A stretch of DNA of 64,000 nucleotides from Candidatus Poribacteria bacterium (GCA_965242965.1 OZ251518.1:1088001-1152000), one strand, 5' to 3'; positions 11,494-48,920 are shown, counted from the first letter of the stretch. Program-made: numbers and translations. Notes: generated by a model from the letters alone, not told the origin.

Positions 11494-12255
11494 ATGAGAA
11501 AAGCCTATTTTGTTTGCGCAGTGCTGCTGATGCTGAGTTTTTCCCTATCGGCGTTTGCGCAAAACGCGCAAGAAGAACACCTGCTCGGCTGGTGGCTCTT
11601 TGATAGCGAGAAAGACGAGATGGGGAATTGGGATGACATCGCCCTACACGGTGCCGAACTCAAGGACGGGCAACTCGTCGTTGAAACCGGCAGATGGGCG
11701 CACGCGCTTGAATATTCCGGTCCCGACATTGAAGAGAAAACCTTGATGTCGTGGGTAGCGTTGGATAACCTCGCCGCAACGGCAGGCTCCGCGCTGACGC
11801 TTGACAAGGAAACCGAAGACCAGTTCAACGGCATCGTCTACGCTGAACGGGAGCCGAACCAGTGGATGTCCGGCAGCAGCTGGTTTCACCGCACCGAAGA
11901 TTTCCCGAAAGCGTTCAACGAAAAAAAGGAAGGCGAGATGGTTTTCTTAGCCTTCACTTATGAGAATGACGGCGGGGATTACAAGGTCTCGGGGTATCGC
12001 AACGGCGAGAGCCTCGGCAGCTATACGAAAGGGGAACTCAAAACATGGCCGACAGGCGATGCCGAAGCGATTTGGGGCAAGCGGCATACAAACGGCTTGG
12101 GTGGCCCCGGTGAACTGAACGCGCATATCGAAGAATCCCGTATCTATGCGGTTGCTCTGACACAGGACGAGATTCAGACTTTGGAAATCGGCACGCTTTC
12201 AGTCGATGCGCAGGGGAAGCTTGCTACTCGGTGGGCATCGTTGAAGGCGAAGTAA
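11494..12255 (+). CDS. Secreted LamG-like jelly-roll protein with KLAxxWxxLK tail
   Basis: GAGGAG RBS, signal peptide ending AFA, LLGWWLFD, IEESRIYAVALTQDEI, tail SVDAQGKLATRWASLKAK. Confidence 0.8.
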   Translation: MRKAYFVCAVLLMLSFSLSAFAQNAQEEHLLGWWLFDSEKDEMGNWDDIALHGAELKDGQLVVETGRWAHALEYSGPDIEEKTLMSWVALDNLAATAGSALTLDKETEDQFNGIVYAEREPNQWMSGSSWFHRTEDFPKAFNEKKEGEMVFLAFTYENDGGDYKVSGYRNGESLGSYTKGELKTWPTGDAEAIWGKRHTNGLGGPGELNAHIEESRIYAVALTQDEIQTLEIGTLSVDAQGKLATRWASLKAK

Positions 12256-12258
12256 CGT

Positions 12259-12690
12259 GAGGGGGTTTCATAAATCGACCAACGTTGCGGTGAAAAAACG
12301 CGCCCTCTCACCGTAGGGCGAGGGCCTGTCCCTCGCCAGGCAACGATCTGAGCAGCAAACAGCCGGAGTCTCTGGGCCGCGGGCGTTTTCCGCAAAGGTT
12401 GAGAGATCGCGGGGGAAACCCGCTCGGATGCGCGTATGGCATCCGAGGGCCCTCGCGCTACGATGAAAAACGCGTCCCCTCACCGTAGGGCGAGGGCCTG
12501 TCCCTCGCCATGCAACGATCTGAGCAGCAAACATCTGGGGTTTCTGAGCTGCGGGCGTTTTCCGCAAAGGTTGAGAGATCGCGGGGGACAGGCCCCCGCG
12601 CTACGGTGAGAGAAAAGCCGCCCCTTTACCGTAGGGCGAGGGCCTGTCCCTCGCCATGCCTAAGGTCTGGAAGACCTTAATGTCTATAGC
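12259..12690. repeat. Mosaic REP array starting with TIR
   Basis: GAGGGGGTTTCATAAAT then duplicated GTAG hairpin blocks and a CTATAGACATTAA-type hairpin. Confidence 0.85.
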
Positions 12691-12716
12691 ATCCTGCATC
12701 TACCGGGCCCAGTCTC

Positions 12717-13403
12717 ATGGCACAATTTCGCACCTGTCTCGTGCAGGTTTTCATCCCATTTTTATTGCTTATCGTGTTCGCCGCAATTGGCGCGGCGGAA
12801 GAAGCACGCTGGACATTTGACGATACCGCCGCTGACTGGGTTGCCGCCAACGGCACCTGGGAGGTGCAGGACGGTGTCTATAAGCAGACGACGCGGTGGG
12901 GAAAAGCGATGCACGCGCTCGTAGACAACGACGTATGGACGGACCACGAGCTCTCGGCGAAGGTGCGGATTGAGGCAGGGCATTGGGCAGGCATCGTCTT
13001 TCGCGCGCAGAACGAGTTTGAATACTACGTGTATCTCCTCTGTCCGAAAGAGAACAAATCGGAGTTGTGGCGGCATCGGCGCAGTACGGCATTCAAGGAT
13101 GGGTTTGAAGGGCGCGACGAGATCGAGCATGACATTGAACCGATCGGTCTCACCCTTACCAAACAAGAGTGGTTCACTTTGAACGTGCGTGCCGAAGGCG
13201 ACCGGATTACGGTGGCGATTAACGGCATCCAACAGGGGGTCTTCACAGACAGCACTTATCCTGCGGGAACGGTAGGGCTGTGGGCATGGGATACGCAAGC
13301 CAGTTTTGACGATGTCAGCGTTACCGATGAACTAACGCCTGTCACACCGGTTGAACCGCGGGAGAAACTTGCGATTTCGTGGGCGGATTTAAAGCGGCAG
13401 TAA
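12717..13403 (+). CDS. Secreted DUF1080 / concanavalin-like domain protein with KLAxxWxxLK tail
   Basis: Signal peptide, WAGIVFRAQ, GTVGLWAW..ASFDDVSV, tail PVEPREKLAISWADLKRQ; paralog of 34623-35276. Confidence 0.8.
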   Translation: MAQFRTCLVQVFIPFLLLIVFAAIGAAEEARWTFDDTAADWVAANGTWEVQDGVYKQTTRWGKAMHALVDNDVWTDHELSAKVRIEAGHWAGIVFRAQNEFEYYVYLLCPKENKSELWRHRRSTAFKDGFEGRDEIEHDIEPIGLTLTKQEWFTLNVRAEGDRITVAINGIQQGVFTDSTYPAGTVGLWAWDTQASFDDVSVTDELTPVTPVEPREKLAISWADLKRQ

Positions 13404-13407
13404 TCTG

Positions 13408-13630
13408 AGGGTGTTTCATAAATTTATCCCTTGAGGGGAGGCGCATCGGGCCCATCTCTGTAATTCGGGTGCGCCTGCACCCGAACGGTTCAGGAGCAGG
13501 TGCTCCTGAACTACTCTGAGGGTGTTTCGTAAATTTATCCCTTGAGGGGAGGCGCATCGGGCCCATCTCTGTAGTTCGGGTGCGCCTGCACCCGAACGGG
13601 TCAGGAGCAGGCGCTCCTGATCTACAGGGG
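13408..13630. repeat. Tandem ~110-bp TIR+REP units
   Basis: Two copies of GAGGGTGTTTC(A/G)TAAATTTATCCCTTGAGGGGAGGCGCATCGGGCCC...TTCGGGTGCGCCTGCACCCGAA. Confidence 0.85.
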
Positions 13631-13670
13631 ATACGGTCTGACAGAACATTCACTATTTAGGAGATTATTC

Positions 13671-14138
13671 ATGGCAAATGTAGGAAGTGCCGCGCCGGCG
13701 TTTACGTTAACAGGCGCGTTGAACAACGAAGATGTTGAAGTTTCGTTAAGCGATTATGAAGGCAAAAACTTAGTGGTGCTTTTCTATCCACTCGCTTTTT
13801 CGCCGGTTTGCGCGGAGCAGGTTCCGGATTTCAACGCGAACCTTGCCGCTATCAAAGCGAAAGGTGCGGAGGTTATCGCCATCAACCGCGATTCGACCTT
13901 TGCGCACAAGGCGTGGAGTGCGGCACTCGGTGGTGTCGATTTCCCGCTTCTCGCGGATATGAACCTTGCTGTCTCCAAGGAGTTCGGCATGGCATTGGCG
14001 GAAGTCGGCATTACGACGCGCGGTGTTTTTATCGTTGACAAGGGGGGCGACATCGCTTTCAAACACGTGGAAGATGCGCCGCCGGACAATACGCTGACTG
14101 CCGAAGAGGTGCTGAGCGAGTTGGATAAATTGCAATAG
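13671..14138 (+). CDS. Peroxiredoxin (AhpC/TSA family, AhpE-like)
   Basis: FYPLAFSPVC peroxidatic motif, FPLLADM, RGVFIVDK. Confidence 0.88.
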   Translation: MANVGSAAPAFTLTGALNNEDVEVSLSDYEGKNLVVLFYPLAFSPVCAEQVPDFNANLAAIKAKGAEVIAINRDSTFAHKAWSAALGGVDFPLLADMNLAVSKEFGMALAEVGITTRGVFIVDKGGDIAFKHVEDAPPDNTLTAEEVLSELDKLQ

Positions 14139-14163
14139 GTGCTGCTGCTGTATATTTCGCGCA

Positions 14164-14610
14164 CCGTAGCGCGGGGGCCTGTCCCCCACGGATATCTCGC
14201 GCATCGTAGCGCGGGGGCCTGTCCCCCGCGATCGTTGGAGTGCGCGAGCACTGGCGAGGGACAGGCCCTCGCCCTACGGTAAAGGGACGGCTTTTCTCCG
14301 CCCGTAGCGCGGGGGCCTGTCCCCCACGATTGTTCGGTAGACCGAGGCATGGCGAGGGACAGGCCCTCGCCCTACGGTGAAACGGAGACGGCCTCCCCAA
14401 CCGTAGCGCGGGGGCCTGTCCCCCGCGATCGTTGAATTGCGCGAGCGATGGCGAGGGGGGGTGACGTTTTTTCATCGTAGCGCGGGGGCCTGTCCCCCGC
14501 GATCGTTGGAGTGCGCGAGCACTGGCGAGGGAAACCCGCTCGCATGCGCGTGTGGCATGCGAGGGCCCAAGCCCTACGGTAAAGGGACGGCTTTTCTCCG
14601 CCCGTAGCGA
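14164..14610. repeat. Mosaic REP array
   Basis: Multiple CGTAGCGCGGGGGCCTGTCCCCCGCG / GGCGAGGGACAGGCCCTCGCCCTACG pairs. Confidence 0.9.
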
Positions 14611-14624
14611 CGCGTCATTTTAAC

Positions 14625-14654
14625 TTGACACCACGGATATGCATGTGGTAAACT
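14625..14654 (+). promoter_or_regulatory. sigma70 promoter for tRNA-Gly
   Basis: TTGACA-18-TAAACT with TG extension. Confidence 0.6.
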
Positions 14655-14663
14655 ATTAACAGT

Positions 14664-14735
14664 GCGGGTGTAGCTCAGCGGTAGAGCGTCAGCTTCCCAA
14701 GCTGAGGGTCGCGGGTTCAATTCCCGTCACCCGCT
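14664..14735 (+). tRNA. tRNA-Gly(CCC)
   Basis: Acceptor GCGGGTG/CACCCGC, anticodon arm TCAGC-TTCCCAA-GCTGA, GGTTCAATTCC T-arm; CCA not encoded. Confidence 0.95.
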
Positions 14736-14918
14736 TCATTCAGAGTTGTCCTGAACGCGTATGGCGTGGGACAGGCCCTCGCCATGCCGCAAGGTAGGAG
14801 AGACCTCCCGGTCTCGATGCACTTGATGTGCCTATCGGGACAAGGATGTCCCTCCTACCAACCAGAAAAAAAGCAAATTCGCGCTACAACAGCGCGCGGA
14901 CCGGAGATAGAGAAAACC

Positions 14919-16043
14919 ATGGCACAAAGAAATCGACTCACCAAAGAGGAAATCCAAGAAGATAAGTTCGTTGAGGTGACGCTGCAGGCTTACGCGTTCC
15001 TGAGGGAGAACCTTCGCTCCATCATCATCGTCGTTGGCGTAGTCATCGTTGCGGTAGGCGGCTATGCGGCTTATCATCAAAATCAAGAGAACCGCCGTGC
15101 GGAAGCCTCCATCGCGCTCAACGCGGCAACGGAGGCGTATCAGAATGCTGAGGAAAGCCTTTTCGATTCAGCAAAGTTGACAGAAGGCGAGGAGGCACTG
15201 AAACAGGTGCAGCCGCAACTTCAGTCGGTGTTTCAGAAACACCCGAACACCGAGTTCGCCGACAAGGCGCGCTATCAGTACGCGAAAACCCTCTACTATC
15301 AGGGTGATTACGCCGGTGCGCGCACGCAGTTCCAAGCGATTGTCGACGCGCCGCAACCCGATAATCAGATTTACAGTCTCTACGCGCAAAAAGCGATAGG
15401 CAACTGCTATGAGCAGGAAGGTGACTACGCGAACGCCATCGCTGCGTATCAACCCAAGGCATTCCAACCTACGCCCCGGGTCTCGCCGGAAATTCGTCAA
15501 TATGTGCTTGCCAACGCCAAATTCAGCCAGGCACTCTGCTATGAAAAACAGGGCGAGCTGGAAACGGCGCGCGCCACCTACAAAGAGATTCTGGACGAAT
15601 TCCGCAGCACGCTTGAGGCGGGAGTTGCCCAGAAAAGCATGGAGAGGGTTGCAGAGGCGAAAGCGGTTATCGCCGCTATTAACGAAGAGGAGCCCTTCAC
15701 CGTTGCGAACGCCGAGCAACTGGAGGCAGAGCAACGTTATTTTGAGGCATTCGTTGCGTATACGGATGCAATCCGCACCTATAAGGTGAACAAAGACATT
15801 GAGAGCGGCTTGTCTTCAGAATTGCGGAAGCAGATTGGGCGTTTTGAAAAACGTGCTACCGCGATGATAAATAACGTGCAAGCCGCCCAGCGCGCCGACA
15901 CCGAAGGACAGCAGGGCACTTGGCTTTACAACTATAACCAAGTTGTCGAATTTGAGCATCTCGGATTAAGTCGCCGTCTCTACGAAAACGCAAGTCTGCA
16001 CTACAAACGTCTCACAACCGCGCCAAACGGCGAAGAAGAGTAA
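14919..16043 (+). CDS. Membrane-anchored TPR protein (YfgM-like N-terminus)
   Basis: KEEIQEDKF, single TM helix, TPR helices; the upstream ORF extension is REP-derived. Confidence 0.8.
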   Translation: MAQRNRLTKEEIQEDKFVEVTLQAYAFLRENLRSIIIVVGVVIVAVGGYAAYHQNQENRRAEASIALNAATEAYQNAEESLFDSAKLTEGEEALKQVQPQLQSVFQKHPNTEFADKARYQYAKTLYYQGDYAGARTQFQAIVDAPQPDNQIYSLYAQKAIGNCYEQEGDYANAIAAYQPKAFQPTPRVSPEIRQYVLANAKFSQALCYEKQGELETARATYKEILDEFRSTLEAGVAQKSMERVAEAKAVIAAINEEEPFTVANAEQLEAEQRYFEAFVAYTDAIRTYKVNKDIESGLSSELRKQIGRFEKRATAMINNVQAAQRADTEGQQGTWLYNYNQVVEFEHLGLSRRLYENASLHYKRLTTAPNGEEE

Positions 16044-16048
16044 ACCTT

Positions 16049-17086
16049 ATGAAACTTAAGAAATCTGTCTCACTGTTCGCACCGTTAGCACCGTCTGTTT
16101 CCCGAACATGGCTGACACTTGGTGCTTTCCTGATATGCCTGTCTCTGTTATCGGTGCCGTTCGCTAACGCCGCGCCGACCGGCAGACTCGCTTATGCCGT
16201 GAACGGCTTTGACGAGAATCTGGGCCGCTTTGACTGGAACCTCTACACCACCGTGCTGCGGGGCACCAAGGACTTCAAAGGACTCCCGCTGAATCATAAA
16301 GGAATGTATCCATCGTGGGGACCGCGGGGAGAACTGCTCTATTTCGTGCAATGGGATGCCGGGCAGGCAGACATCTATTCCATTAACCCCAGCAGCCCGA
16401 AAAATAAGAAACGCATCACCGAAATTTCTGGGACGTATCGGTTCCTTTCTGCATCGCCGAATGGGCAAAAACTCGCTTTCAGCGGGTGGACGATGGAGCA
16501 GGTGCCGCAGGAAAACCAGATCTGGGTGCTTGATGTCCCTAGCGGGGAAATGGAAGCAGTGACAGAGGTGCCGCACTTCGGATGGCCCTATTCTTTCTGG
16601 GGCATCTCCTGGGCACCGAGCGGAAAACGCCTCGTCTTCTCACTCGCCAGACCCGGGTGGTTGGAGCAACTCTATCTATTAGACGTTGAAACCAAAGAGA
16701 TAGAAATCTTAACCGAACTCAACAAAGACTTCTATCCCGTGTGGGCACCCGATGGCAAACGCATCCTTTTCCTCCGATGGAACAGGGAATTTGACACGTT
16801 CTGCACGATTGACGTTGAGACGAAAACGATAGAACCGCTGTTCGATGTTGACAAAGCCACCGGCTACTGGGGGGACTGGGCACCCGATGGCGACTACATC
16901 GTCTATTCGCGGTGGGGTACCCTCTACGTCTATGATTTCGAGACGATGGAGACAGAAGAGCTGCTAGAAGTAGACGGTAGCATTTTCGTCGTCTCGTGGC
17001 TGCGGGATATTACTAACCTGCCTGTCGAATCTCGGCACAAACTGGCGACGACGTGGGGACAATTGAAGCGTCCTGACAACAAGTAG
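16049..17086 (+). CDS. Secreted TolB-like PD40 beta-propeller protein with KLATTWGQLK tail
   Basis: Signal peptide, PSWGP/SPNG/WAPSG/WAPDG repeats, tail PVESRHKLATTWGQLKRPDNK. Confidence 0.8.
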   Translation: MKLKKSVSLFAPLAPSVSRTWLTLGAFLICLSLLSVPFANAAPTGRLAYAVNGFDENLGRFDWNLYTTVLRGTKDFKGLPLNHKGMYPSWGPRGELLYFVQWDAGQADIYSINPSSPKNKKRITEISGTYRFLSASPNGQKLAFSGWTMEQVPQENQIWVLDVPSGEMEAVTEVPHFGWPYSFWGISWAPSGKRLVFSLARPGWLEQLYLLDVETKEIEILTELNKDFYPVWAPDGKRILFLRWNREFDTFCTIDVETKTIEPLFDVDKATGYWGDWAPDGDYIVYSRWGTLYVYDFETMETEELLEVDGSIFVVSWLRDITNLPVESRHKLATTWGQLKRPDNK

Positions 17087-17094
17087 GAGCCGCA

Positions 17095-17451: not shown

Positions 17452-17475
17452 CGCGGCTGCCGAGAGGAAAAAACG

Positions 17476-19905: not shown

Positions 19906-19949
19906 TTCTCCAAAGGCCTAATTCTCTAAAGGCCTAATGCTCTAAAGGA
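19902..19949. repeat. 16-bp tandem repeat x3
   Basis: CTAATTCTCCAAAGGC / CTAATTCTCTAAAGGC / CTAATGCTCTAAAGGA. Confidence 0.8.
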
Positions 19950-19962
19950 AAGACACAATATC

Positions 19963-27065: not shown

Positions 27066-27491
27066 ATGGCGAAATACATAGTTGCAACCCCAGACGAAAT
27101 TCCGCCGGGCGAACGCAAAATCGTTGACATCGGCGGCCGCTCCATCGGCATTTTCAATATTGATGGCGAATTTTTTGCTATCCGGAACAGCTGCCCACAC
27201 CAAGGCGGACCGCTCTGTAAAGGGCACGTTACCGGCTTCTTAAAGTCGCCCGCGCCCGGAACGTATACCTATACCCGGCAAGGCGAGTTTCTGCGGTGTC
27301 CGTGGCATAACTGGGAATTTGACATCAAAACTGGGCAATCGTGGTGGAACCCGACGCAGCGGCGCGTCCGCAAATACGATGTCCACGTAGAGCGCGGCGA
27401 GGACATCTCCGCATCCGAAAAAGGCCCTTACGTCGCCGATACGTTTCCCGTGACTGTGGAACAGCAGTATCTCGTCATTGAAATTGCGTAA
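27066..27491 (+). CDS. Rieske [2Fe-2S] ferredoxin
   Basis: CPHQGG...CPWHNWEFD. Confidence 0.92.
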   Translation: MAKYIVATPDEIPPGERKIVDIGGRSIGIFNIDGEFFAIRNSCPHQGGPLCKGHVTGFLKSPAPGTYTYTRQGEFLRCPWHNWEFDIKTGQSWWNPTQRRVRKYDVHVERGEDISASEKGPYVADTFPVTVEQQYLVIEIA

Positions 27492-27528
27492 TTTGCGCGG
27501 AGTTTTTCTTCACGGAAACCTTAACGCT

Positions 27529-28875
27529 ATGAAACTTACCCCCTTTTTCAGCAAAACTTGCCTCCTCCCGTGCCTCTGTATCGCGCTTATCCTGATGATC
27601 TCCAATGCGGCGGCAGAACGTTACACCTATCCCAGTGGCGGACAGATAGTCACGCTGCAAGGATTACCCCTCAATTTAACGCATTTCAACGCCAGAGCCA
27701 ACGGCTACATTCCGGATAAAGGCGGTAACGATTTTATCATTATGGAGCAGTTTAATCGCAACTGCGGTCCGAACAGCGTTCAGATGGTGCTTTATTATTA
27801 TAGAAACCATCGGCGGCTCAAGGACATTTGGGCGGCGGGGGATATCCATACGGTTGCGTTGGGGACACGGGCCGACAAACTGCGGCGCGCCCTAAACGAA
27901 TTGGACGTGCCGACACATTGGTATACCGAAAAGACGCTTGACGATGTGCGCCGCTATATCCGCAATAACCGGCCGCCTATCCTTCTCCTTAGGCGTTCAA
28001 ACACCGGTTACCATTGGGTAGTCGCCGTCGGTTACGATACGCAGTTAGACAAATTTCTCATCGCCGATCCGCAGGGCCGATTTCAGTGGTGGGCATCGGC
28101 AGAGCTCCAAGCCGGCTGGGACTTGCGCTGGCAGACAGCGTTTGAGAACAAAGAAGCGGCATGGTATGAATTCCAAATCGATGTCGGCCCGTTTGCCAAT
28201 CTCACCCTCAAGCGGAATACGGTAGTCGTGCCGTTGGAACCGCCCTCGTTTGAGCGCAGGTATCATCCCTATTGGACAGACATGCAGGCGATAGAGATTT
28301 ATGGCAGCAGTGGCAATAATTTCTGGCGAGAAACGCGCACGTGGGAAGAGACGGTGAACTTTGACAATCCGTTCGTCCTCGCGCAAGTATCCGATATTGA
28401 GCTCGTCAGTTCTACTGCTACTGCGCGGCTAGATGGGTGGGAGCGCGTCGGCGATAGTTCTATCCGCCTCTGGGGAGAGGTTGGGGACGGGTTCGTCCTG
28501 CACGGCAGAATGTGGGTAATCGTTCGCACTTTCTACTTTAACAACGGTGCCGCTGCGCCTCCAGTAACTGCGCCGCTCACGACAGAAACCGCTTTGTTGC
28601 CTAACTATCCCAACCCGTTTAACCCAGAGACGTGGATACCTTATCAACTCGCATCGCCTGCCGATGTCACGGTATCCATCTACGCCGCGGATGGGAAATT
28701 AGTGAGAACTTTGGAACTGGGTTATCAACCGGCGGGTATCTATCAGAGCCGGAGCCGCGCGGCGTATTGGGACGGCTGCAATGCGCAAGGTGAACGCGTG
28801 GCAAGCGGTGTCTATTTCTATACGTTCACGGCTGGTGATTTCTCGGCTACCGGCAAGATGTTGGTAAGAAAATAG
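27529..28875 (+). CDS. Secreted C39-like cysteine peptidase with T9SS type A / FlgD-Ig-like C-terminal domain
   Basis: Signal peptide; Q....CGP, HWVVAVGYD, IADP; LLPNYPNPFNPETWIPYQL...SGVYFY...KMLVRK. Confidence 0.8.
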   Translation: MKLTPFFSKTCLLPCLCIALILMISNAAAERYTYPSGGQIVTLQGLPLNLTHFNARANGYIPDKGGNDFIIMEQFNRNCGPNSVQMVLYYYRNHRRLKDIWAAGDIHTVALGTRADKLRRALNELDVPTHWYTEKTLDDVRRYIRNNRPPILLLRRSNTGYHWVVAVGYDTQLDKFLIADPQGRFQWWASAELQAGWDLRWQTAFENKEAAWYEFQIDVGPFANLTLKRNTVVVPLEPPSFERRYHPYWTDMQAIEIYGSSGNNFWRETRTWEETVNFDNPFVLAQVSDIELVSSTATARLDGWERVGDSSIRLWGEVGDGFVLHGRMWVIVRTFYFNNGAAAPPVTAPLTTETALLPNYPNPFNPETWIPYQLASPADVTVSIYAADGKLVRTLELGYQPAGIYQSRSRAAYWDGCNAQGERVASGVYFYTFTAGDFSATGKMLVRK

Positions 28876-29441: not shown

Positions 29442-32400
29442 TTGATAGGCTGCCTACTGCTCACATTCGGGCTGCTGACGGTGCTTGCACCGCCGGGAGA
29501 GAGCCACGACGCATTCACGCGACAGGATATCGATTCTGATGCCGATGATCACCTCAATGACAGGCCAGGGGAAAGGGATATCGGCAAACGGTTGGTAACC
29601 CATGCGTTGCCAGCGACATCGTTTACTTCGGTGGCGGAATCGGCCCACGGCCACAGCCATGGGTTTAATATTGATGCCTTCTTTGGTGGCAATACGACCG
29701 CTATCCATCCGAAGCATTTTGAGATTGAGTGGATACGGGTCTATAAAAATCCGAAAACCACGCCGCTGATAAATACCGATGACGAGGATGGCGAGGACCT
29801 TTGGGTCGAAGGTGACAACTTTGAATCAGGCTTGGCCCTTCCCTTGACCCTCACGAGTCGTGTTATTGTGCCGCCCGGTTTTCCAAACCGGCGCGCGCGG
29901 GTTTTCCCGTCCTTATGGAAGGACTATAAGCAGATCGTGGATAAAAACGTTGCCCTGGATGACGTGGATGACACCTACTTCTGGGTTGATATCGATCCGA
30001 CGAGCGGCGAACTGATAGAAGATAAGAGCAAACCCGGCAACAGTGGGCGTGTCATGCCCGGGCAAAATGATACGGTAGTCCCCGGGGATATCGTCGCCAT
30101 TGCCATCAACGTCAAACTGACTTACTATACAGCGGTAAGGGAATTCGTGGTTCCGAATACGAAGGATCCGGAAGAATTTGCTAACGAAGCCCGTAGCGTC
30201 GATTGGAGGCAAAATGATTTGCCATTATGGTTCAAGGAAGGTCAAAAGGGGCCCGATCGAGGCGATGTCTGGGCGCGCAATTACGGCCTTACCGGTGTCG
30301 GACCCACTGCCGATAAGCCTCTAGGTCGAATCGATGAAATCGCCGGCGGGTCGATAGTTGCAGCCGTGGGCATTGAGCATGTCGGGATCCTGAATCCCAA
30401 TTACCCACTGGAACGCCACATAGGGAGTGGGCTGGTAAACTGGACCGTGACAGACTTCGCGGCCAGCCATAGGGACTGGGGGCATACGGGAGAGGATGGT
30501 TACCATACCATCGTCTACCAATTTACGGTGACAGAGGACCATCTTGAATTGAATGACTTGTTGCACGGGTGGTTGGCCGGGGATGGCACTACCGTGAGCC
30601 CGTTCAATGTCCCACACCGTAACAAAGGGCAGCCGCATTACCACGGTGCTGATTTCGATACCGTGAATTACCCCCACGGTCTCACCTACCAAGAAATCAC
30701 AACCCTGCGTGCGAGCACACTCGCCGATCACGATCCGGAGTTTGGATTCGCCGTGTCATTTAATTCTAATAACTATACCGCCGGTCAGCGATTGCGTATC
30801 TTTCACGACGTGTCTGCGTTTATAACGGGCGGACCCTACGCCGCCTTTCCAGAAGGCAGCAGCACAGCTGTCGACGACGATCCGGTAGTAACCCAGGCTG
30901 ACGTCAACTTATCTGGTACTGATCAGATTAAGTACACGTACGCGCAGGGTGATGGGGTAACTCTCAAGAGGACGCAATATCGGAGCCACAGGAGGACTTT
31001 TAAGGCTGATGAGGCGAATCGTTTCATCAGCCAAGGTCGCACCACCATCAACTACGCAGGTCGATACACACGCGGCGAGGTGCCTTTCCACGGTATCAGA
31101 AATATAGACCTTGACAGAAACAGCGATGGTCTTATTGACTACTTGCCAATAGTTGATATCGAGGCGGACAGCACCAATGCAAATGGTCGCGTCCGGCACT
31201 ATGCTGTCTCGGATGGTTTTTATGAGCACCATGCGGCGACGAGGTTTCCTCACTACTTTCCGCCCACGTATGATGGCACTATCGACTATCCGGCGGTAGT
31301 GATGCCTGTCGCCGCGATGACAGAGATAGTCGTGCCATCGGGGACACAAACCGGCCCGTTTACGTTGACATTGCAGTTCCAGGAGGACTACAGTGCAGTC
31401 GGGCATGGGAAAAGCCCTGCGTTTCATGATTTGACGAACGAAGAGCTGCTCACGACGCTTCAAACTGCGCTGTCTGCAGATGTTGGGGATAGCACGGTGA
31501 CGGTGAGCCGTCCTGACGCGGTGGATGCGTGGTTGCGGTATCCGGTGAGGGTGGTGCCCCCGCTCGGCTTTAAAGGCGCGCTGACGTTCCAAGTGCCGGA
31601 AAATACGGTGTTTGCCCACCTTGACCCGCTCGGCAATTTGGCTTCAAACAGTGTCACGGTGCAGGTAGACACGGTGCCGCCGGTAGACACGCTGCAGGTA
31701 GTTGTAGATGAGATTAAGGTCGTTGAGCCGGAAGGCGGTGCGTATCTTGCAGGGAACGAGATCTCCGTTGAAGTGTCGTTTGCGCAGGATGGGTTGACGT
31801 TTGAAGGCGAAAATCCGCCGTATGTGACAATCTACCTCGGCGACAAAGACGTGCCGGCAAATGCGCGGCATGCGACGTGGCAGAAAGGCGCGGAGCGTTC
31901 AGGTTCGACGATTGTGCCGTTTGCGTATGTTTTGCAAGCGACCGATCCGCCGGCTGCGTCGGTGAGCGTAGATTTAAACACTCTGTCGATTCCGCGTGAG
32001 ACGACGTTGATGTCTGGGGCAGGTCTTGAGCGTGCTGGGACGGCAGATCCGGCGGTGGATGTGGGTGAGGTTGCGCCGGTACCGGACACGTCCACGGATC
32101 TGGTGGTTTCTGTCAGCGATCCGTCCGGTGAGCGGCCGGTGGCGACAACTGTCGATGTGCAGGTGATACCGGTGATTTACATTCCGCAGGATGATGCTGT
32201 CTCAAAAGCGGTTGCATCAACTGTGCCGCGTTCTCCGGTCGTTTTCAACGAACTGGGGAATGGCAGTGATGCAACAAATGACTGGCTGGAATTCCGCAAT
32301 GTCAGCGGTTCAGATGTCTCTCTCAAAGACTGGGAGCTCTCCGTTGTCGCCGATGGAAAAAAGGAAGATACCTCCCTCATCGTCTTCCCGGATGTGAGTG

Positions 32401-33890
32401 TGCCGGCAAACGGTTTGTTATTGATAACAAACATGCCTTCGGACAAAACGCCACTCGCAGGCGGTGCCAATAAAGGGTTATCGCATGCATCTTTAGTGGA
32501 TGCGGGCCTCTCGCTGCCCGATGATGGCAAATTCCTGTTGATTCTCCGGAATGCCAAGGAGAAACTCGGCTTGGATGAAGCGTTCATTGATGTCGCCGGT
32601 GGCGGCGGCAGTGATACGGATGCGTTCATTCGTGACGAGACAGGCGATTATGATACGCATGTCTGGCCCTTGCAGGTCTTGGAATCCCCCGGTGATGCCA
32701 CTGAAGATGCGCTCAGTTCAGGCAAAGTCTGGCAGCGCGCGAAAGCGGATATCATTGGGTATCATCAAGCTGCCTGGGCGGAAGCCGCCTTCACCGGTAT
32801 CGGTTACGATAGAAAAGTGACGCAGTCGGCTGCCACTGCGGGCACACCGGGCTATCCGAATGGCGCGGTGAAAACGGAGGCATCTACGCCAAAAGGTGCG
32901 GTGACTATCAGCGAAATCATGTTTGATTCCGAAGGTGGCACATTGCCGCAATGGATCGAGTTGTATAACAAATCCAAAACCGAGGCACTGAACCTGAATC
33001 GCTGGCAGTTAGAGATTCAGAATCGGAATTCCCACGACTTGGTTGGCAGACCCATCGTCACCTTGACGCTGCAAGAGAAAGTGATTCAACCGAATCAAAC
33101 CCTCTTGATAGTGGCCGGCGATGCCCGTGCTTCCTCGACAGAAGTCTTCCCGGCAGATCGCGTCTACAACCTCCTGAAACTGCACGAGAAGAATCTCCGC
33201 ATCAAAACGCCGCGAGATACCTTCTTGAGTGGCGAGGGATTCTATCTGAAGTTATCCGATCGAAACGGGACGAAGATAGACGAAGTCGGGAACATCGATG
33301 ACAATCGTCGCACCGACGATGCGCCGGTGTGGGTGTGGCCCACGAATCGTCGGGATGGCGCGCGCAGTTCTGTCGTCCGTCGTTATGATAAAGGCGCGGT
33401 GGCACGCGATGGGATGCTGAAGTCCAATTGGGCATTAGCGGCGCATTTCAATAAATTTAAAGTGGAATCGCTGCACTACGGTCATGCCGATGACATTGGC
33501 ACGCCGGGGTATCGTCAAGGCGGTGCATTGCCCGTGGAATTATCGAGTTTCACCCTCACGCGTACTGATGCCGGTCCGGTTGTCGTGACTTGGACAACCG
33601 AGTCTGAAGTCGACAACGCCGGATTTAATCTACGTCGGAGTCTGAAACGCGAGAGTGGTTTCACGTTGTTGAATCCTGTGCTCATCGCCGGTGCCGGCAC
33701 GACAGGCGAGCGTCAAACTTACACGTTCACCGATACCTCTGCGAAGCCTGGGGTCGAGTATTATTACCAGATCGAAGAGGTTTCGTTAGGTGGGCGGCCG
33801 GAGGTATTGCGGACGCGTTACTTACCGGGTCCCGTTTCGCCGACGAATCGTTCGTTGACAACGTTTGGTGAAGTCAAGCAGCGGGAGTAA
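29442..33890 (+). CDS. Large surface protein with Ig-like and two lamin-tail domains, FN3-like end and variant C-terminal motif
   Basis: VVFNELG..DWLEFRN, VTISEIMF..QWIELYN, GTPGY, LPVELSSF..WTTESEVDNAGFN, tail PVSPTNRSLTTFGEVKQRE. Confidence 0.8.
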   Translation: MIGCLLLTFGLLTVLAPPGESHDAFTRQDIDSDADDHLNDRPGERDIGKRLVTHALPATSFTSVAESAHGHSHGFNIDAFFGGNTTAIHPKHFEIEWIRVYKNPKTTPLINTDDEDGEDLWVEGDNFESGLALPLTLTSRVIVPPGFPNRRARVFPSLWKDYKQIVDKNVALDDVDDTYFWVDIDPTSGELIEDKSKPGNSGRVMPGQNDTVVPGDIVAIAINVKLTYYTAVREFVVPNTKDPEEFANEARSVDWRQNDLPLWFKEGQKGPDRGDVWARNYGLTGVGPTADKPLGRIDEIAGGSIVAAVGIEHVGILNPNYPLERHIGSGLVNWTVTDFAASHRDWGHTGEDGYHTIVYQFTVTEDHLELNDLLHGWLAGDGTTVSPFNVPHRNKGQPHYHGADFDTVNYPHGLTYQEITTLRASTLADHDPEFGFAVSFNSNNYTAGQRLRIFHDVSAFITGGPYAAFPEGSSTAVDDDPVVTQADVNLSGTDQIKYTYAQGDGVTLKRTQYRSHRRTFKADEANRFISQGRTTINYAGRYTRGEVPFHGIRNIDLDRNSDGLIDYLPIVDIEADSTNANGRVRHYAVSDGFYEHHAATRFPHYFPPTYDGTIDYPAVVMPVAAMTEIVVPSGTQTGPFTLTLQFQEDYSAVGHGKSPAFHDLTNEELLTTLQTALSADVGDSTVTVSRPDAVDAWLRYPVRVVPPLGFKGALTFQVPENTVFAHLDPLGNLASNSVTVQVDTVPPVDTLQVVVDEIKVVEPEGGAYLAGNEISVEVSFAQDGLTFEGENPPYVTIYLGDKDVPANARHATWQKGAERSGSTIVPFAYVLQATDPPAASVSVDLNTLSIPRETTLMSGAGLERAGTADPAVDVGEVAPVPDTSTDLVVSVSDPSGERPVATTVDVQVIPVIYIPQDDAVSKAVASTVPRSPVVFNELGNGSDATNDWLEFRNVSGSDVSLKDWELSVVADGKKEDTSLIVFPDVSVPANGLLLITNMPSDKTPLAGGANKGLSHASLVDAGLSLPDDGKFLLILRNAKEKLGLDEAFIDVAGGGGSDTDAFIRDETGDYDTHVWPLQVLESPGDATEDALSSGKVWQRAKADIIGYHQAAWAEAAFTGIGYDRKVTQSAATAGTPGYPNGAVKTEASTPKGAVTISEIMFDSEGGTLPQWIELYNKSKTEALNLNRWQLEIQNRNSHDLVGRPIVTLTLQEKVIQPNQTLLIVAGDARASSTEVFPADRVYNLLKLHEKNLRIKTPRDTFLSGEGFYLKLSDRNGTKIDEVGNIDDNRRTDDAPVWVWPTNRRDGARSSVVRRYDKGAVARDGMLKSNWALAAHFNKFKVESLHYGHADDIGTPGYRQGGALPVELSSFTLTRTDAGPVVVTWTTESEVDNAGFNLRRSLKRESGFTLLNPVLIAGAGTTGERQTYTFTDTSAKPGVEYYYQIEEVSLGGRPEVLRTRYLPGPVSPTNRSLTTFGEVKQRE

Positions 33891-34589: not shown

Positions 34590-34622
34590 ATTTGCAATAT
34601 GAACGCTATAGGAGGAAACGTG

Positions 34623-35276
34623 ATGAAAAACATGGCGATAATTTTAAGCCTCATGTTCCTGGGCTTGCCCGCGTGGAGCGGAACGCAACTCTGGGATTTT
34701 GAGGAGAAGCACGATGACTGGGAAGTCGCCAACGGTGACTGGGCGATAAAGGGCGGTGTCTACCAAGTAGAGAAAGGTGGAAAAGCCGAACATTCCCTCG
34801 TCGGTGAAGAGAAGTGGGATGACTACACCGTCGAGGCGAAGATCCGCCTAGACGAAGGCAACTGGGCAGGCGTAGTTTTCCGGGCGCAAAGCGAGATGGA
34901 ATACTACATCTACTACCTCAACGTCCAGAACAACAAGTCCGAACTGTGGAAGCACAGCAAGGGCGCATGGGACACGCGCGTCGCTATCACCAGCAACATT
35001 CCCGCCGCCGGAAAACTCAAAATAGAGAACGGCGAGTGGTTTGATGTGAAGGTGAATGTCGAAGGGAACACCTTCCAGTTGCACATCAACGGTGAACTGC
35101 AGGATGAAAAAGAGGACGGCACCTACAAAACCGGCATGATAGGGGTGTGGGCCTGGGAGACCGGGGCGAGTTTTGACGATGTCACGATTACGGGAGATAA
35201 CGTCAAAGATACGCTTGCCGTCGATGCACGTGAAAAGTTGGCAACGACATGGGGCCGGCTGAAACGGGTTGACTAG
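34623..35276 (+). CDS. Secreted DUF1080 / concanavalin-like protein with KLATTWGRLK tail
   Basis: AGGAGG RBS, signal peptide, WAGVVFRAQ, GMIGVWAW..ASFDDVTI, tail AVDAREKLATTWGRLKRVD. Confidence 0.8.
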   Translation: MKNMAIILSLMFLGLPAWSGTQLWDFEEKHDDWEVANGDWAIKGGVYQVEKGGKAEHSLVGEEKWDDYTVEAKIRLDEGNWAGVVFRAQSEMEYYIYYLNVQNNKSELWKHSKGAWDTRVAITSNIPAAGKLKIENGEWFDVKVNVEGNTFQLHINGELQDEKEDGTYKTGMIGVWAWETGASFDDVTITGDNVKDTLAVDAREKLATTWGRLKRVD

Positions 35277-35381: not shown

Positions 35382-36200
35382 GTGACACACTTAACCGAAA
35401 CGCAACAACAGCAATGGCAGGAGCAAGGCTTTCTGCTCCTGAAACAGGTGCTGAAACCGGATGAGATTGAGACGCTTTTAACGGCTGTGGATAAGGTTAT
35501 CGAAACTTATCTTCAGAAAACGCCGAAGATGAAAGGCGGAACAGGCGCGTATACCATCATTCGCGCAATTGAGCAGACAGCCGCGCTGGATATGCTCACC
35601 GATCATCCGCGCACTTTCGGCACTATCCTCGCGCTCATGGGGCCCTACCTCCAAATCATGGGGACGCAGATTTATGTCCGGCACCCTGAACAAGAAGCAC
35701 TGATGGCGTTTCATACGGATGCCGGCCCCTCACTGCAACGCATCCATCCGCATCCCGAAAGCCTCCCGCTGCAATTCAAAGTCCAATTTTTCTTGACAGA
35801 TCTTTCTGCGCCGAACCAGGGCAATTTTATGTGCGTGCCGGGAAGCCACAAACACCCGTTCCCCGAGAACGCGTTCGCGAAAGGCACCTATCCCGATGGT
35901 GCGATGCAAGTCCTCGCAGCGGCAGGAGATGCAGTCATTTTCCCGTGGGCGTTATGGCACGGTGTCGGCCCGAATCGGACAGAACGGATTCGGAAAAGCG
36001 TCACGTTCCGGTACGGACAAATGTGGTGCCGCCCTTACGATTATGACACGCTACCGCCCGATGTGCTCGCGCGTATGACACCGCGCCGACGACGGTTGTT
36101 TGGCGAACTGGGTGAAAACCCTCATCCAACCGACTACTATAAACCGCAAGATCAGCTGGAGGTGATTTACGGCGATGAGTGGGCCAGTCGTAATTTTTGA
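35382..36200 (+). CDS. Phytanoyl-CoA dioxygenase (PhyH) family Fe(II)/2OG dioxygenase
   Basis: FHTD HxD motif, VPGSH, LWHG, RKS. Confidence 0.9.
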   Translation: MTHLTETQQQQWQEQGFLLLKQVLKPDEIETLLTAVDKVIETYLQKTPKMKGGTGAYTIIRAIEQTAALDMLTDHPRTFGTILALMGPYLQIMGTQIYVRHPEQEALMAFHTDAGPSLQRIHPHPESLPLQFKVQFFLTDLSAPNQGNFMCVPGSHKHPFPENAFAKGTYPDGAMQVLAAAGDAVIFPWALWHGVGPNRTERIRKSVTFRYGQMWCRPYDYDTLPPDVLARMTPRRRRLFGELGENPHPTDYYKPQDQLEVIYGDEWASRNF

Positions 36201-39151: not shown

Positions 39152-39159
39152 GCAACGCC

Positions 39160-40035: not shown

Positions 40036-40162
40036 ACCTGAGGCGTTTGCAAGCGTCTGAATCCTAGCAACCTATTCGTTTCCCAACGTTTGCAAACAGG
40101 GCACTACCCGGCGAACGCATCTCAACTTACAGCGGCGAGCCAGATCAACATAATTTGATAAA

Positions 40163-42089: not shown

Positions 42090-42194
42090 CATGGATACGG
42101 AGAACTGAATTGCTCGGATAAGCAGGTAAGCCTTGACAACATCAAGACTGCCTGCTAAAGTCATCCCTGCTGCAAAGGAGCAGCGAAACAGCAT

Positions 42195-46019: not shown

Positions 46020-46057
46020 TCCAAGAACGGCATCATCCACTTACATAGGTTTACGTT

Positions 46058-46951
46058 ATGCAACAAACCACCCTTCCTGAACGCATCGCGAATAACGAAA
46101 GAATCATTACAGGACATACGCGCATCATCGGCGTAATCGGCGCACCGGTGGAACATAGCCGTTCGCCGCAAATGCACAACGCTGCCCTCGCAAAAGCCGG
46201 GTTGGACTATGTCTACGTGCCTTTTCACGTACGTCCCGGCGATATTGCGCGCGCGCTGGAAGGGTTCAAAGCACTCAACGTCGTCGGAATCAACGTCACG
46301 CTGCCGCATAAAGCGGCAGTCCTGCCGTATCTCACTTCGATTTCGCGGGAGGCGGCACTCATCGGGGCAGTCAACACGCTGAGTTTTCGCGATGGAGAGA
46401 TTCACGGCGATAACACGGACGCGGAAGGATTTCTGCGGGCGTTGCGGGAAACGGAAGGCGACGATGTCAAGCACCGACTTTTCCGAGAAGTTGTCGTGCT
46501 TGGTGCCGGTGGGGCAGCGCGTGCTGTCGTCGTCGCACTGGCACTGGCAGGCGCGAACCGCATCGTCATCGCTAACCGGACAGCGACAAAAGCCGTCGCC
46601 TTAGCCGAAGAGATGCAGGCGAAGACAGACGTTACCATGCACGGGATGGGACTTACCGACGCGCGCGTGGACGAAAGTGTGCGCAATAGCACGCTCCTCG
46701 TCAATACCGCAACCGCCAGCATGGATGCAAACGCGCCGATGCTCATTGACGACTCGGTGCTATCGCCGCGCACCTTCGTCTATGACATCGTCTATACGCC
46801 GCCTGTCACGCCGTTGATGCACGCCGCCGCGAAACGTGGGTGCAAAACCCTCGGCGGCATAGGCATGCTCGTCCATCAAGGGGCCATCGCCTTTGAAAAA
46901 TGGACAGGCATCAAACCCTGTCTCGTAACACTCAGGAAGGCACTTTCGTAG
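46058..46951 (+). CDS. aroE: Shikimate dehydrogenase
   Basis: HSRSPQMHN, NVTLPHK, GAVNT, NTD, GAGGAARA, NRT, MLVHQGA. Confidence 0.96.
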   Translation: MQQTTLPERIANNERIITGHTRIIGVIGAPVEHSRSPQMHNAALAKAGLDYVYVPFHVRPGDIARALEGFKALNVVGINVTLPHKAAVLPYLTSISREAALIGAVNTLSFRDGEIHGDNTDAEGFLRALRETEGDDVKHRLFREVVVLGAGGAARAVVVALALAGANRIVIANRTATKAVALAEEMQAKTDVTMHGMGLTDARVDESVRNSTLLVNTATASMDANAPMLIDDSVLSPRTFVYDIVYTPPVTPLMHAAAKRGCKTLGGIGMLVHQGAIAFEKWTGIKPCLVTLRKALS

Positions 46952-47031
46952 AAACGTCTATAGACATTAAGCCGCTACGCGGCTTTAGCGGAACTGGAAC
47001 TTTTCCTTCGTTAACGACACATTACAAAAAT

Positions 47032-47322
47032 ATGCAAGAGAAAGAACAACAACATCAGCAAGCCATTCGATTCGTTATCCTCGGAGTCCCCTATTCCATC
47101 AGGCCCAGCGATGACTTATCGGAAGATGATATTCTCGAACTCATTGAATACGTCAAAGGACTCGTCAATTCCTACAGCCAAAAAGGGTTTGATGAGCAGA
47201 AGATTCCGTTGCTCGTCGCCTTCCACATCGCCGATGAACTTCGGCGGCTCCAGGCATCTTATGAGACACCGCTGTATCGGTTAGTGGAAAAACTGCATAT
47301 AGCGATTGAGGACGCGGAATGA
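47032..47322 (+). CDS. zapA: Cell division protein ZapA-like
   Basis: ILGVPYSI..., LLVAFHIADEL, coiled tail; ~96 aa. Confidence 0.65.
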   Translation: MQEKEQQHQQAIRFVILGVPYSIRPSDDLSEDDILELIEYVKGLVNSYSQKGFDEQKIPLLVAFHIADELRRLQASYETPLYRLVEKLHIAIEDAE

Positions 47323-48080
47323 CCAGGGTGCCTGCCGCGCAACGGGATGGAAGCAAAATGCCCTATCGTGCCATCATCTTCGATCTGTTCGGGACTTTAG
47401 TCGGAAACTTCAGCCGCAGCGAAAACGACAAAGTTATCGCGCAGCTGGCGGAAATCCTCAACCTGCCTTATCCGAAATTCTGGCAACGCATGGGAGAAAC
47501 CTACGTTGACAGATGCCTAGGCAGATACGCTGGCTTAGCCGAGTTCGCGCAGTCTCTCTGTGCAGAACTGGGTATCAAAGTAGAGACTGCGCAGCTCAGC
47601 AACGCGACCCAACTTTACGATGCATTCATCGCGAACGCGCTTATGCCTGAACCAGCGGTTTTAACTGCGTTAGATACGCTGAAAAACGACGGCATCACGT
47701 TGGGACTTATCAGCGACTGTGTGCCTGCTGTGCAACGGCTCTTCCCGAAATCGCCGCTAGCCAAACGGATTGATACCGCTGTTTTCTCCTGTCAAGAACG
47801 GATGATGAAGCCGGCACGCGGCATCTATCAGCGCGCGTGCCGCCGATTACACGTGCAACCAGCGGAATGCCTTTACGTCGGGGACGGTAGTAGTCAAGAA
47901 TTGACTGGGGCTGCAACAGCGGGGATGGTGCCTATCTTAAAACGAACGGAACTCTCCGATGTCTACGATGCGCGCAGACCGGATGTGGAAAATTGGCAAG
48001 GCCCTGTGATTGACGAGATACGCGAGGTTTTTGACTTTGTTAGCGGAGCCTTTGTTAACGGAGAACGTCAAATTCCGTAG
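47319..48080 (+). CDS. HAD-superfamily hydrolase
   Basis: FDLFGTL, LISD, MKP, YVGDG. Confidence 0.88.
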   Translation: MTRVPAAQRDGSKMPYRAIIFDLFGTLVGNFSRSENDKVIAQLAEILNLPYPKFWQRMGETYVDRCLGRYAGLAEFAQSLCAELGIKVETAQLSNATQLYDAFIANALMPEPAVLTALDTLKNDGITLGLISDCVPAVQRLFPKSPLAKRIDTAVFSCQERMMKPARGIYQRACRRLHVQPAECLYVGDGSSQELTGAATAGMVPILKRTELSDVYDARRPDVENWQGPVIDEIREVFDFVSGAFVNGERQIP

Positions 48081-48134
48081 GCGCGGTTTCAAACCGCGCC
48101 CACCGGTTTCGTGCCGATTCCTGCCTATTTGGAA

Positions 48135-48920
48135 TTAAAACCGCCTTTTCAGTTCACCCCAGCGCACCGGCAGTTTATCCAACGCTTCAACCGGAAAAAC
48201 CTTGTCCATCGCTTGGTTGACTTCGGCTTCCGTAAGCGCGACGTTCCAGATGGCGACATCGTCAATGATACCGACGTAGTGTTCGCGGTTACCCTCGCTA
48301 TTTCTGCCGATGGAGACAGGCACGTCGTTGGTATCAATCTTGCCTTTCGCGGCGGTTTCCACCTTCACTTCGCCATCGTAGTAGAGTTTCATCTGGTTTC
48401 CATCGTAGGTTGCGGCGAGGTGCGTCCACTTTTTCGCCGGCAGCTGCGGGCTCGGGCCGTTGCCGCACCGTTTCTCTGTCCCCTTGTCAACAGAGATGAT
48501 GAAACCAACTTTCCCGTTGGAACCGCCTTGCTGATAAAACCCGTATACCATCCATGGGGCGGTATCGCCAGCCCAGGTCTTGACAATCATGCGGAGCCAT
48601 TCGTTAGTGAACTGCGTCGGGTAGAACCAGCCCATCAACGTCACCTCATCCGTGATGTCAAGAGAGGGAGCATCGGGGACTTCTACCCAACCGCCGGCAT
48701 CGCCGCTCAGTTCAACAGCATTGCCGTATTTCCCCTTCGTCCACTTCGCTTTGTGAAGCGTGCCATCGTTTTCATGCCGAGACCGGTCCTTCGCCGTGTC
48801 GCCTTTGCCCTCATCAAAAGAGAGATACAGCACCAGCTCTGCCTCGCGGACAGCATCGCTCACCGTTCCGCTGAGAACGATGAAGCCGAGTAACATCAGC
48901 GTTATCGCGAAAACTTTCAT
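48135..48920 (-). CDS. Secreted LamG domain protein with KLxxxWGELK tail
   Basis: Signal peptide, LYLSFDEG, WTHLAATYDG, IDDVAIWNVALT, tail PVEALDKLPVRWGELKRRF. Confidence 0.85.
   Translation of the reverse strand: MKVFAITLMLLGFIVLSGTVSDAVREAELVLYLSFDEGKGDTAKDRSRHENDGTLHKAKWTKGKYGNAVELSGDAGGWVEVPDAPSLDITDEVTLMGWFYPTQFTNEWLRMIVKTWAGDTAPWMVYGFYQQGGSNGKVGFIISVDKGTEKRCGNGPSPQLPAKKWTHLAATYDGNQMKLYYDGEVKVETAAKGKIDTNDVPVSIGRNSEGNREHYVGIIDDVAIWNVALTEAEVNQAMDKVFPVEALDKLPVRWGELKRRF

Follow-up and report, generated by a model that had tools for sequence, protein, structure and literature searches.

C-terminal sorting signals set how bacteria decorate their surfaces, and each newly recognized class of such signals has led to an enzyme or a translocon. 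One described class is the type A C-terminal domain of the type IX secretion system (T9SS; Por_Secre_tail, TIGR04183 and PF18962, with FlgD_ig variants), which sits at the extreme C terminus of Sec-exported proteins of unrelated folds, with copy numbers per genome that range from the tens to the hundreds. The PEP-CTERM/exosortase, LPXTG/sortase, GlyGly-CTERM/rhombosortase, and PGF-CTERM/archaeosortase systems likewise combine a short motif near the C terminus with a signal peptide, and they too mark large, lineage-limited sets of paralogous carriers. Here we describe a C-terminal peptide that shares these properties, which was noticed in a 64,000-nucleotide stretch of DNA from a Candidatus Poribacteria bacterium (GCA_965242965.1, OZ251518.1:1088001-1152000; this whole stretch is called the window below). 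The Poribacteria, a phylum without cultured members, are dominant in the microbiomes of many sponges. The peptide, which we call the tag, looks undescribed, and it is unusual among C-terminal sorting and docking signals in having neither a membrane helix nor a folded domain.

We tentatively propose, as a possibility that we favor rather than one we would call probable, that the tag is an export or surface-display signal: a portable, strictly C-terminal address, read in trans, on Sec-exported proteins of Poribacteria. The tag would be an unstructured tail on domains that are complete without it, and one envelope component common to all carriers, presumably an outer-membrane or surface machine, would recognize it in trans. 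It would take its carriers to the cell surface and keep them there, through outer-membrane passage, attachment, or both. In this it would work like the T9SS C-terminal domain with which it coexists, without belonging to that family.

The window belongs to a 5.70-Mb assembly of two contigs that is 94.7% complete and for which we counted motifs in a set of 4972 frames. A loose regular expression for the tag, run on frames of 60 residues or longer, gave 89 matches, 87 of them no more than 11 residues from the stop. A profile built from these 87 tails, counted at 10 bits or more and at most 25 residues from the stop, identified 123 frames with the Trp form of the tag genome-wide, in 122 of which it ends within 9 residues of the stop (the remaining one is at 20). 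A core expression had 103 terminal matches (no more than 12 residues from the stop) and 8 internal ones, compared with 0 terminal and 4 internal matches in reversed sequences and 0 to 1 terminal and 1 to 6 internal matches in five shuffles. The original prediction would have been weakened by a motif equally common at internal positions; the motif is terminal, and the controls are nearly devoid of terminal matches.

In addition to the Trp form, a Phe form with the consensus G-P-V-S-[AP]-x-N-R-x-L-T-T-F-G-[EA]-[VL]-K-x-x-[EK] occurs at the extreme C terminus of 31 giant lamin-tail proteins of 611 to 2214 residues, and its length from the Val to the aromatic residue equals that of the Trp form. 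Five further giants with LRR, fn3, and LTD domains (one of them a fragment) bear the Trp form. The tagged set thus comprises about 150 proteins, or 2 to 3% of the proteome, most of which are sugar binding. At conserved positions of the tag in this genome, Leu is encoded by six synonymous codons, Thr by four, and Gly by four. Because synonymous codons vary freely, selection acts on the peptide and not on the DNA, and this rules out conservation at the DNA level in the form of a 3' RNA element.

The Trp-form motif reads V-[ED]-P-x-G-K-L-[AT]-T-T-W-G-x-[LI]-K and is followed by 1 to 6 mostly basic residues, which makes a tag of about 20 residues. With positions numbered from the Trp as 0, Leu is found at -12, Ala or Pro at -11, Val at -10, Glu, Asp, or Ser at -9, Pro or Ala at -8, Gly or Asp at -6, Lys at -5, Leu at -4, Ala or Thr at -3, and Thr at both -2 and -1; the Trp is followed by Gly, Ala, or Ser at +1, any residue at +2, Leu, Ile, Val, or Met at +3, and Lys at +4. 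The Val at -10 is present in 111 of 122 tags of this genome and in all 146 of 146 database representatives. Both core basic positions are specific for Lys despite their Arg-rich surroundings: at +4, Lys outnumbers Arg by 143 to 3 in the 146 representatives and by 102 to 3 in this genome, and at -5 it does so by 141 to 5 in the representatives. Between the last Lys and the stop there are 1 to 11 residues (mode 3, in 48 of 122 carriers, with one outlier of 23), among which Arg is the commonest (119 occurrences). A pair of paralogues marks where the tag begins: carrier o29810 ends ...GFLTA-VDAQDKLATSWGKIKRLR, whereas a paralogue 86.6% identical to it runs ...GFLTA-SEPTP... and continues for 678 more residues, so that the two diverge right after GFLTA.

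In the tripartite signals named above, the motif precedes a membrane helix and a cluster of basic residues, whereas the tag has no hydrophobic stretch and only its 1 to 11 trailing residues. The lack of a membrane helix had been noted from the start, and it is borne out by Kyte-Doolittle values in the last 40 residues (top 15-residue mean, 1.53; mean, 0.54). The description of the tag as amphipathic did not hold up: the mean helical hydrophobic moment is only 0.28, which makes the term a poor one. The moment of the core is the same, 0.28, when calculated for a strand as for a helix (100 degrees), and in the first half of the tag it is 0.26 for a helix and 0.41 for a strand. An amphipathic-helix membrane anchor was rejected on the strength of this low mean moment and of the short, low-confidence helix in AlphaFold models.

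A mean net charge of +2.6 from the Val to the end, the invariant Trp, and the Arg-rich extension past the last Lys would all suit a tail that binds lipopolysaccharide, the membrane, or an envelope polymer directly, with no protein reader. We consider such direct anchoring quite unlikely. The hydrophobic moment is low, electrostatics alone would not require Lys at particular positions within an Arg-rich context, and both T-T-W-G and Val -10 are kept too strictly for a generic lipid binder.

The ends of the tags bear on a different explanation, in which the tail is a pro-peptide or a degron that directs a periplasmic PDZ-type (S41) protease to trim or destroy the carrier. Strict nearness to the free C terminus would suit PDZ-type recognition, and the window itself encodes a PDZ-containing C-terminal-processing peptidase of the S41 type (54548-56119, plus strand), a conceivable reader of C-terminal tails. 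However, C-terminal-processing proteases are known to prefer apolar ends, and the final residue of the tag varies, with Arg, Lys, or Gln in most of the 122 carriers (55, 15, and 14, respectively), Tyr in 10, and Phe in 6. Moreover, S41 peptidases are widespread, whereas the tag is confined to one of the phyla searched, and conserving a motif of 17 residues across about 150 proteins only to cut it off would be uneconomical. We therefore regard processing or turnover as very improbable.

In the window, a six-frame scan with the regular expression recovered all six tails on which the original prediction was based, each 2 to 5 residues from its stop, as described there, and gave no match elsewhere in any frame. 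All six carriers have signal-like hydrophobic N termini, and Pfam agrees with the folds that had been named for them (Laminin_G_3, DUF1080, PD40, and lamin tail). The single consensus proposed for all six tails stood for five of them, which match the Trp profile; the sixth, with Phe for Trp, falls below the profile threshold. We refer to the carriers as A to F.

Carrier A (11494-12255, plus strand; PF13385) is an exported Laminin_G_3 protein with a signal-like N terminus, whose longest frame begins at 11368 and whose likely start is at 11494 (MRKAYF...). Its motif lies at 12199-12246 (plus strand), and its tag, from the invariant Val to the stop, is VDAQGKLATRWASLKAK (12202-12255, plus strand), detected by the regular expression and by the profile at 34.2 bits. 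Two carriers are exported proteins of the DUF1080 or 3-keto-disaccharide hydrolase-like type (PF06439, 3keto-disac_hyd), namely B (12717-13403, plus strand) and the DUF1080-like E (34599-35276, plus strand). Their motifs at 13347-13394 and 35217-35264 (both plus strand) begin the tags VEPREKLAISWADLKRQ (13350-13403, plus strand; 30.7 bits) and VDAREKLATTWGRLKRVD (35220-35276, plus strand; 38.4 bits), each found by both methods. A look-up in the ESM Atlas with the tail of E returned scores of 0.79 or less and was uninformative.

Carrier D (29442-33890, plus strand; PF00932) is one of the 31 Phe-type giants with a lamin-tail domain. Its motif (33831-33878, plus strand) was found by the regular expression, and its tag, VSPTNRSLTTFGEVKQRE (33834-33890, plus strand), is the Phe-subtype tail that the Trp profile does not match. 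Carrier F is an exported Laminin_G_3 protein on the minus strand (48135-48935; PF13385, 96.8 bits) with the motif at 48194-48147 and the tag VEALDKLPVRWGELKRRF at 48135-48191 (minus strand). It has 221 homologues, for which NCBI gives the name LamG domain-containing protein [Candidatus Poribacteria bacterium]; a region search with its atypical tail against 5.8 billion proteins gave no match beyond F itself. Carrier C (16049-17086, plus strand; PF07676) is an exported PD40 beta-propeller, one of 14 paralogues, with the motif at 17021-17068 and the tag VESRHKLATTWGQLKRPDNK at 17024-17086 (both plus strand). A TPR protein of the TPR_21 type (14766-16043, plus strand) stops 5 bases upstream of C, a gene pair that recalls TolB with CpoB.

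AlphaFold models of F (51-row alignment; pLDDT, 88.4) and C (14 rows; pLDDT, 83.1) have confident bodies, and the tag is drawn as coil plus a short low-confidence helix, with a pLDDT of about 47 in F (residues 245 to 266) and about 46 in C (residues 321 to 345). The low values suggest that the tag is unpacked on either fold. The possibility that it is the closing strand of the PD40 propeller was rejected, since the model of C leaves it unpacked.

The tag is portable across protein families. BLAST clustering of the 123 carriers with the tag removed yielded 29 unrelated clusters of bodies, with 57 LamG/DUF1080 proteins, 14 PD40 proteins, and 14 singletons. Pfam matched 28 cluster representatives to Laminin_G_3, PD40, LRR plus fn3 plus LTD, CBM_4_9, CBM9_1 (twice), NPCBM, F5/8 type C, HmuY, a GH43_C2-like domain, and, weakly, DUF4960; half of these representatives (14 of 28) matched no Pfam family. 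Most carriers are single binding modules of 200 to 300 residues with no enzyme part. Carbohydrate-binding modules, HmuY, and LRR/fn3/LTD giants act extracellularly in other bacteria. We speculate that the tagged lectin-like modules and giant adhesin-like proteins are candidates for contact with the host matrix and with food polysaccharides.

The carriers are exported. A signal-peptide test, home-made and crude, in which the best of several starts was taken for carriers and background alike, was passed by 112 of the 123 carriers compared with 26% of the remaining frames of 200 residues or more (857 of 3257). The co-occurrence with signal peptides expected in the original prediction is thus evident. 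Of the 11 carriers that failed, most look signal-like on inspection, and one is encoded by a fragment of a gene. Compartment targeting, which had been offered as one possible role, is unlikely because the carriers have Sec-type signal peptides; a targeting peptide for an encapsulin or microcompartment, which needs cytoplasmic cargo, was rejected on the same ground.

The tail might alternatively be no address at all but a terminus passed down within a single expanded family, or a part of the structure of the domains that bear it. The 57 of 123 carriers in one LamG/DUF1080 cluster lend this some color, as do the 53 of 123 that have another carrier within two genes, and part of the carrier count is indeed due to recent duplication. 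Against this stand the 29 unrelated body clusters with at least 10 Pfam folds, the unpacked state of the tag in the models of two folds, and the occurrence of near-identical bodies with and without the tag. In an alignment of the 14 PD40 paralogues, furthermore, the bodies are about 20% identical, and the tags are conserved. We consider it highly improbable that the tail is no address.

The T9SS C-terminal domain coexists with the tag in this genome (43 copies by TIGR04183, all terminal), and none of the 43 proteins that end in it carries the tag. One of them is encoded in the window, a C39-like peptidase that ends in a T9SS-type (FlgD_ig/Por_Secre_tail) domain (27478-28875, plus strand). The two endings alternate on the same families of bodies. 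The paralogue of o29810 is a 925-residue protein in which the 86.6% identity runs up to GFLTA and is followed by a WD40 domain, a cohesin, and a T9SS-type domain, with no tag. Five more T9SS-type-domain proteins contain carrier-like bodies, with a cohesin and/or a dockerin before the domain in 4 of the 5. In a metagenomic homologue of carrier F, I-A-V-E-P is retained and a dockerin plus a T9SS-type domain replaces the second half of the tag. The T9SS-type-domain proteins examined have the order cargo, cohesin and/or dockerin, and T9SS-type domain. Judged by their sequences, the tag and this cassette are alternative endings for the same kinds of modules. Of all the arguments for the tag as an address with a function like that of the domain, we regard this as the strongest.

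The two endings differ in other respects. The T9SS domain is a folded unit of 70 to 100 residues, whereas the tag is a peptide of about 20 residues that is predicted to be unpacked, a difference in length that had been pointed out in the original prediction. No tail matches the T9SS domain model, and the tag has no profile similarity to the domain; it is not a truncated version of it either (hhalign against 17 of the domains in this genome, probability 0.14%). The cargo also differs: T9SS-type domains terminate large multidomain proteins with cohesins and dockerins, and the tag terminates small single modules and the lamin-tail giants. The cohesin and dockerin modules before the T9SS-type domains suggest a cellulosome-like surface network. 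Further loci that combine these elements are found at C1:2330141-2332915, 1530349-1534440, and 2782877-2787001, among others.

These arrangements also bring to mind a docking peptide, which would bind an envelope receptor or scaffold noncovalently without driving export, so that lectin modules are plugged onto one platform. Analogues are the dockerin-cohesin pair and the disordered colicin epitope that binds TolB. The carriers, as mostly single binding modules without an enzyme, would make most sense when assembled; modular docking already exists in the genome, in the form of 13 cohesin modules and of dockerins in T9SS-type-domain proteins; and the fusion of WD40 and cohesin in place of the tag reads like a Rosetta-stone fusion. 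A library-wide profile search adds a structural hint: three unrelated repeat proteins (P0150, P0178, and P0249) with the repeat unit VAVDPxGRATVVW share the register of the first half of the tag, which is only a hint that the tag might form a hairpin. The repeat proteins come from other, GC-rich organisms and have weak matches to the SBBP and BNR_4 propeller repeats, all below the cut-off save for one stretchless SBBP match. Together with the strand moment of the first half, which exceeds its helix moment, the hairpin register makes binding by strand addition plausible. On the other hand, docking modules of this kind need not be terminal, yet the tag always is; no receptor family was found; and the hairpin-unit resemblance is weak and may be convergent. 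We regard docking without export as somewhat doubtful, and we continue to favor an export or surface-display signal.

The dockerin itself (PF00404) resembles the tag as a modular element of the C terminus, through which many carbohydrate-binding or enzymatic modules are attached to one scaffold. The genome has both cohesins and dockerins, and a dockerin stands in for the tag in the metagenomic homologue described above. The dockerin differs in being a calcium-binding duplicated module of 60 to 70 residues that may be internal, whereas the tag is always terminal. No dockerin was matched on the 34 carriers scanned by Pfam; dockerins were found only in the T9SS-type-domain proteins. Peptides that bind by strand addition, such as the beta-signal of outer membrane proteins, the TonB box, the TolB-binding epitope of colicins, and PDZ ligands, are similar to the tag in length, in disorder, in having a key aromatic residue, and in a possible hairpin or strand conformation. 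As their consensus is generally given, the beta-signal ends in an aromatic residue and the TonB and TolB boxes are N-terminal; the final residue of the tag is Phe or Tyr in 16 of 122 cases and Arg in 55. To our knowledge, none of these four kinds of peptide marks 2 to 3% of a proteome.

Among the phyla searched, the tag is confined to the Poribacteria (Planctomycetota and several candidate phyla were not covered). The nearest EF-Tu genes to that of the source genome are from Candidatus Poribacteria assemblies (87, 82, and 80% identity). The tail profile matched 121 of 121 Poribacteria genomes from 8 families and 19 genera, mostly with at least 66 scored matches per genome out of 80 to 358 first-look candidates; the lowest count, in a genome of 3.8 Mb, was 15 matches among 40 candidates. 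Outgroup genomes were called positive if they had any match at an E value of 0.01 or below. By this measure there were 0 of 86 positives in the phylum of a Calditrichaceae genome, 0 of 151 in that of an Acidobacteriota genome, 2 of 151 in Bacteroidota, 1 of 121 in the phylum of Lujinxingia, 3 of 151 in the phylum of a Desulfotignum genome, and 1 of 151 in Chloroflexota, as well as 0 of 10 among single genomes.

The outgroup total of 7 positives in 811 genomes from six phyla, each with one partial match (best E value, 5e-4), is about the number expected by chance at this threshold, so that we consider it chance level. The two Bacteroidota positives are due to an internal GH3 glycosidase motif, NPSGKLTTTWP, that mimics the middle of the tag; the Myxococcota positive matches the profile in part and lies 14 residues from a stop; and the Desulfobacterota positives sit in 40-residue frames. 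None of these was accepted as a tag. The counting of hits in related phyla that had been suggested in the original prediction sets the Poribacteria apart from the outgroups searched. In a search of 1.84 billion cluster representatives, 971 reached an E value of 0.001 or below, and the tag was terminal in 146 of the best 150. The profile could serve as a cheap predictor of the surface or secreted proteome of Poribacteria.

In the T9SS, whose core consists of SprA/Sov, PorV, PorU, and PorK/L/M/N, PorU cleaves off the signal, and the cargo becomes attached to anionic lipopolysaccharide. The genome encodes several proteins that resemble T9SS components. A SprA-like protein of 2207 residues scored 159.6 bits, below the cut-off of 200, and its gene is single copy in 61 of 61 Poribacteria genomes sampled. 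The PorV family (PorV_fam) has 14 frames in the genome, four of them above the cut-off, and is present in 121 of 121 Poribacteria genomes. There are three giant C25 peptidases; matches to the T9SS-type domain fall in frames of the lengths of these giants at neighboring coordinates, and a PorV-like gene lies directly downstream of one of them. The loci of these T9SS-like parts include C1:3451181-3457804, which is not in the window, C1:1073052-1073981, which lies 14 kb short of where the window starts, and 13 others. Two PorV-like barrels are fused to peptidoglycan-directed domains, one to SPOR (591 residues; C1:897908-899680) and one to an SLT lytic transglycosylase (616 residues; C1:4400694-4402541).

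The tag could be a second, smaller class of signal for such a T9SS-like machine, with specialized members of the expanded PorV-like barrel family as readers, C25 peptidases as possible sortases, and either passage through the SprA-like protein or covalent ligation to the surface at the Lys at +4. We consider this specific version unlikely. If true, it would amount to a new kind of sorting in double-membraned bacteria, by a helix-free mini-signal that marks 2 to 3% of the proteomes of a phylum. Kamke et al. (2014; PMC3909097) reported the T9SS-type domain in Poribacteria single-cell genomes but no Por structural genes. The universal presence of SprA-like, PorV-like, and C25 genes in the genomes searched bears on that point.

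Several observations weigh against an export or surface-display signal, whether or not a T9SS-like machine is its reader. Neither GldM nor PorP/SprF was matched in the genome, in searches that were silent in all control genomes too. No machine genes were found beside the carriers, whose neighbors are repeat-derived frames, oxidoreductases, PhyH proteins, sulfatases, and other carriers. Of 19 SprA-like loci examined, only 3 have a tag carrier next to the SprA-like gene, and no cognate gene was found there; the 112 positions up to four genes away from the 14 PorV-like genes hold three carriers, about as expected from the share of carriers among all genes; and no candidate partner emerged from the neighborhood searches. 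A complex prediction between the best-conserved PorV-like barrel (residues 24 to 310, 27-row alignment) and the tail alignment scored 0.00, in a run without controls on 1 of 14 paralogues, and speaks neither for nor against such a pairing. A shared T9SS route is an analogy only, given that hhalign detects no relation between tag and domain, and we infer rather than observe both the final location of the carriers and any removal of the tag. Should a reader exist, the tag peptide itself would be usable as bait for it.

Among 524 frames that neighbor carriers, 149 form one Arg/Pro/Gly-rich BLAST cluster and look like read-through of interspersed repeats rather than genes. A PhyH-type dioxygenase encoded in the window (35382-36200, plus strand) and eight paralogues form a nine-member cluster among these neighbors. 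Other clusters that recur beside carriers are Gfo/Idh/MocA-like, sulfatase-like, and formylglycine-enzyme-like proteins (these three by appearance) and the lamin-tail giants.

The tag is absent from the curated models searched, which bears on the question, raised in the original prediction, of whether it had already been named: neither NCBIfam nor Pfam gave a match to a sorting signal. NCBIfam models run on the six whole window carriers matched nothing covering the tails, and on 55 tails, at E values up to 10, they included no sorting-signal model, the one weak match being to ribosomal protein S16 (E value, 0.037). Pfam gave no match on the tails. The motif strings of the tag had no match in the 8.4 million papers searched, "TTWG" with "C-terminal" gave nothing relevant among the matches listed, and of the matches listed on signal peptides, LamG, or type IX secretion in Poribacteria, none describes the tag. 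Sortase (PF04203) had no match in the genome, with positive results in 3 of 14 controls; exosortase, rhombosortase, and archaeosortase were not searched. A link to peptidoglycan of the Lpp type was rejected, as the genome has no YkuD (PF03734; 7 of 14 controls positive) and the conserved Lys is not the last residue.

Two further genes of the window stand apart from the tag. A type ISP restriction-modification enzyme (7918-11040, plus strand) comprises a coupler, an N6 methylase, and a Type_ISP_C specificity domain (337.8 bits). A protein of 640 residues encoded at 56221-58143 (plus strand) combines DUF6785 and DUF6784 (529.8 bits).

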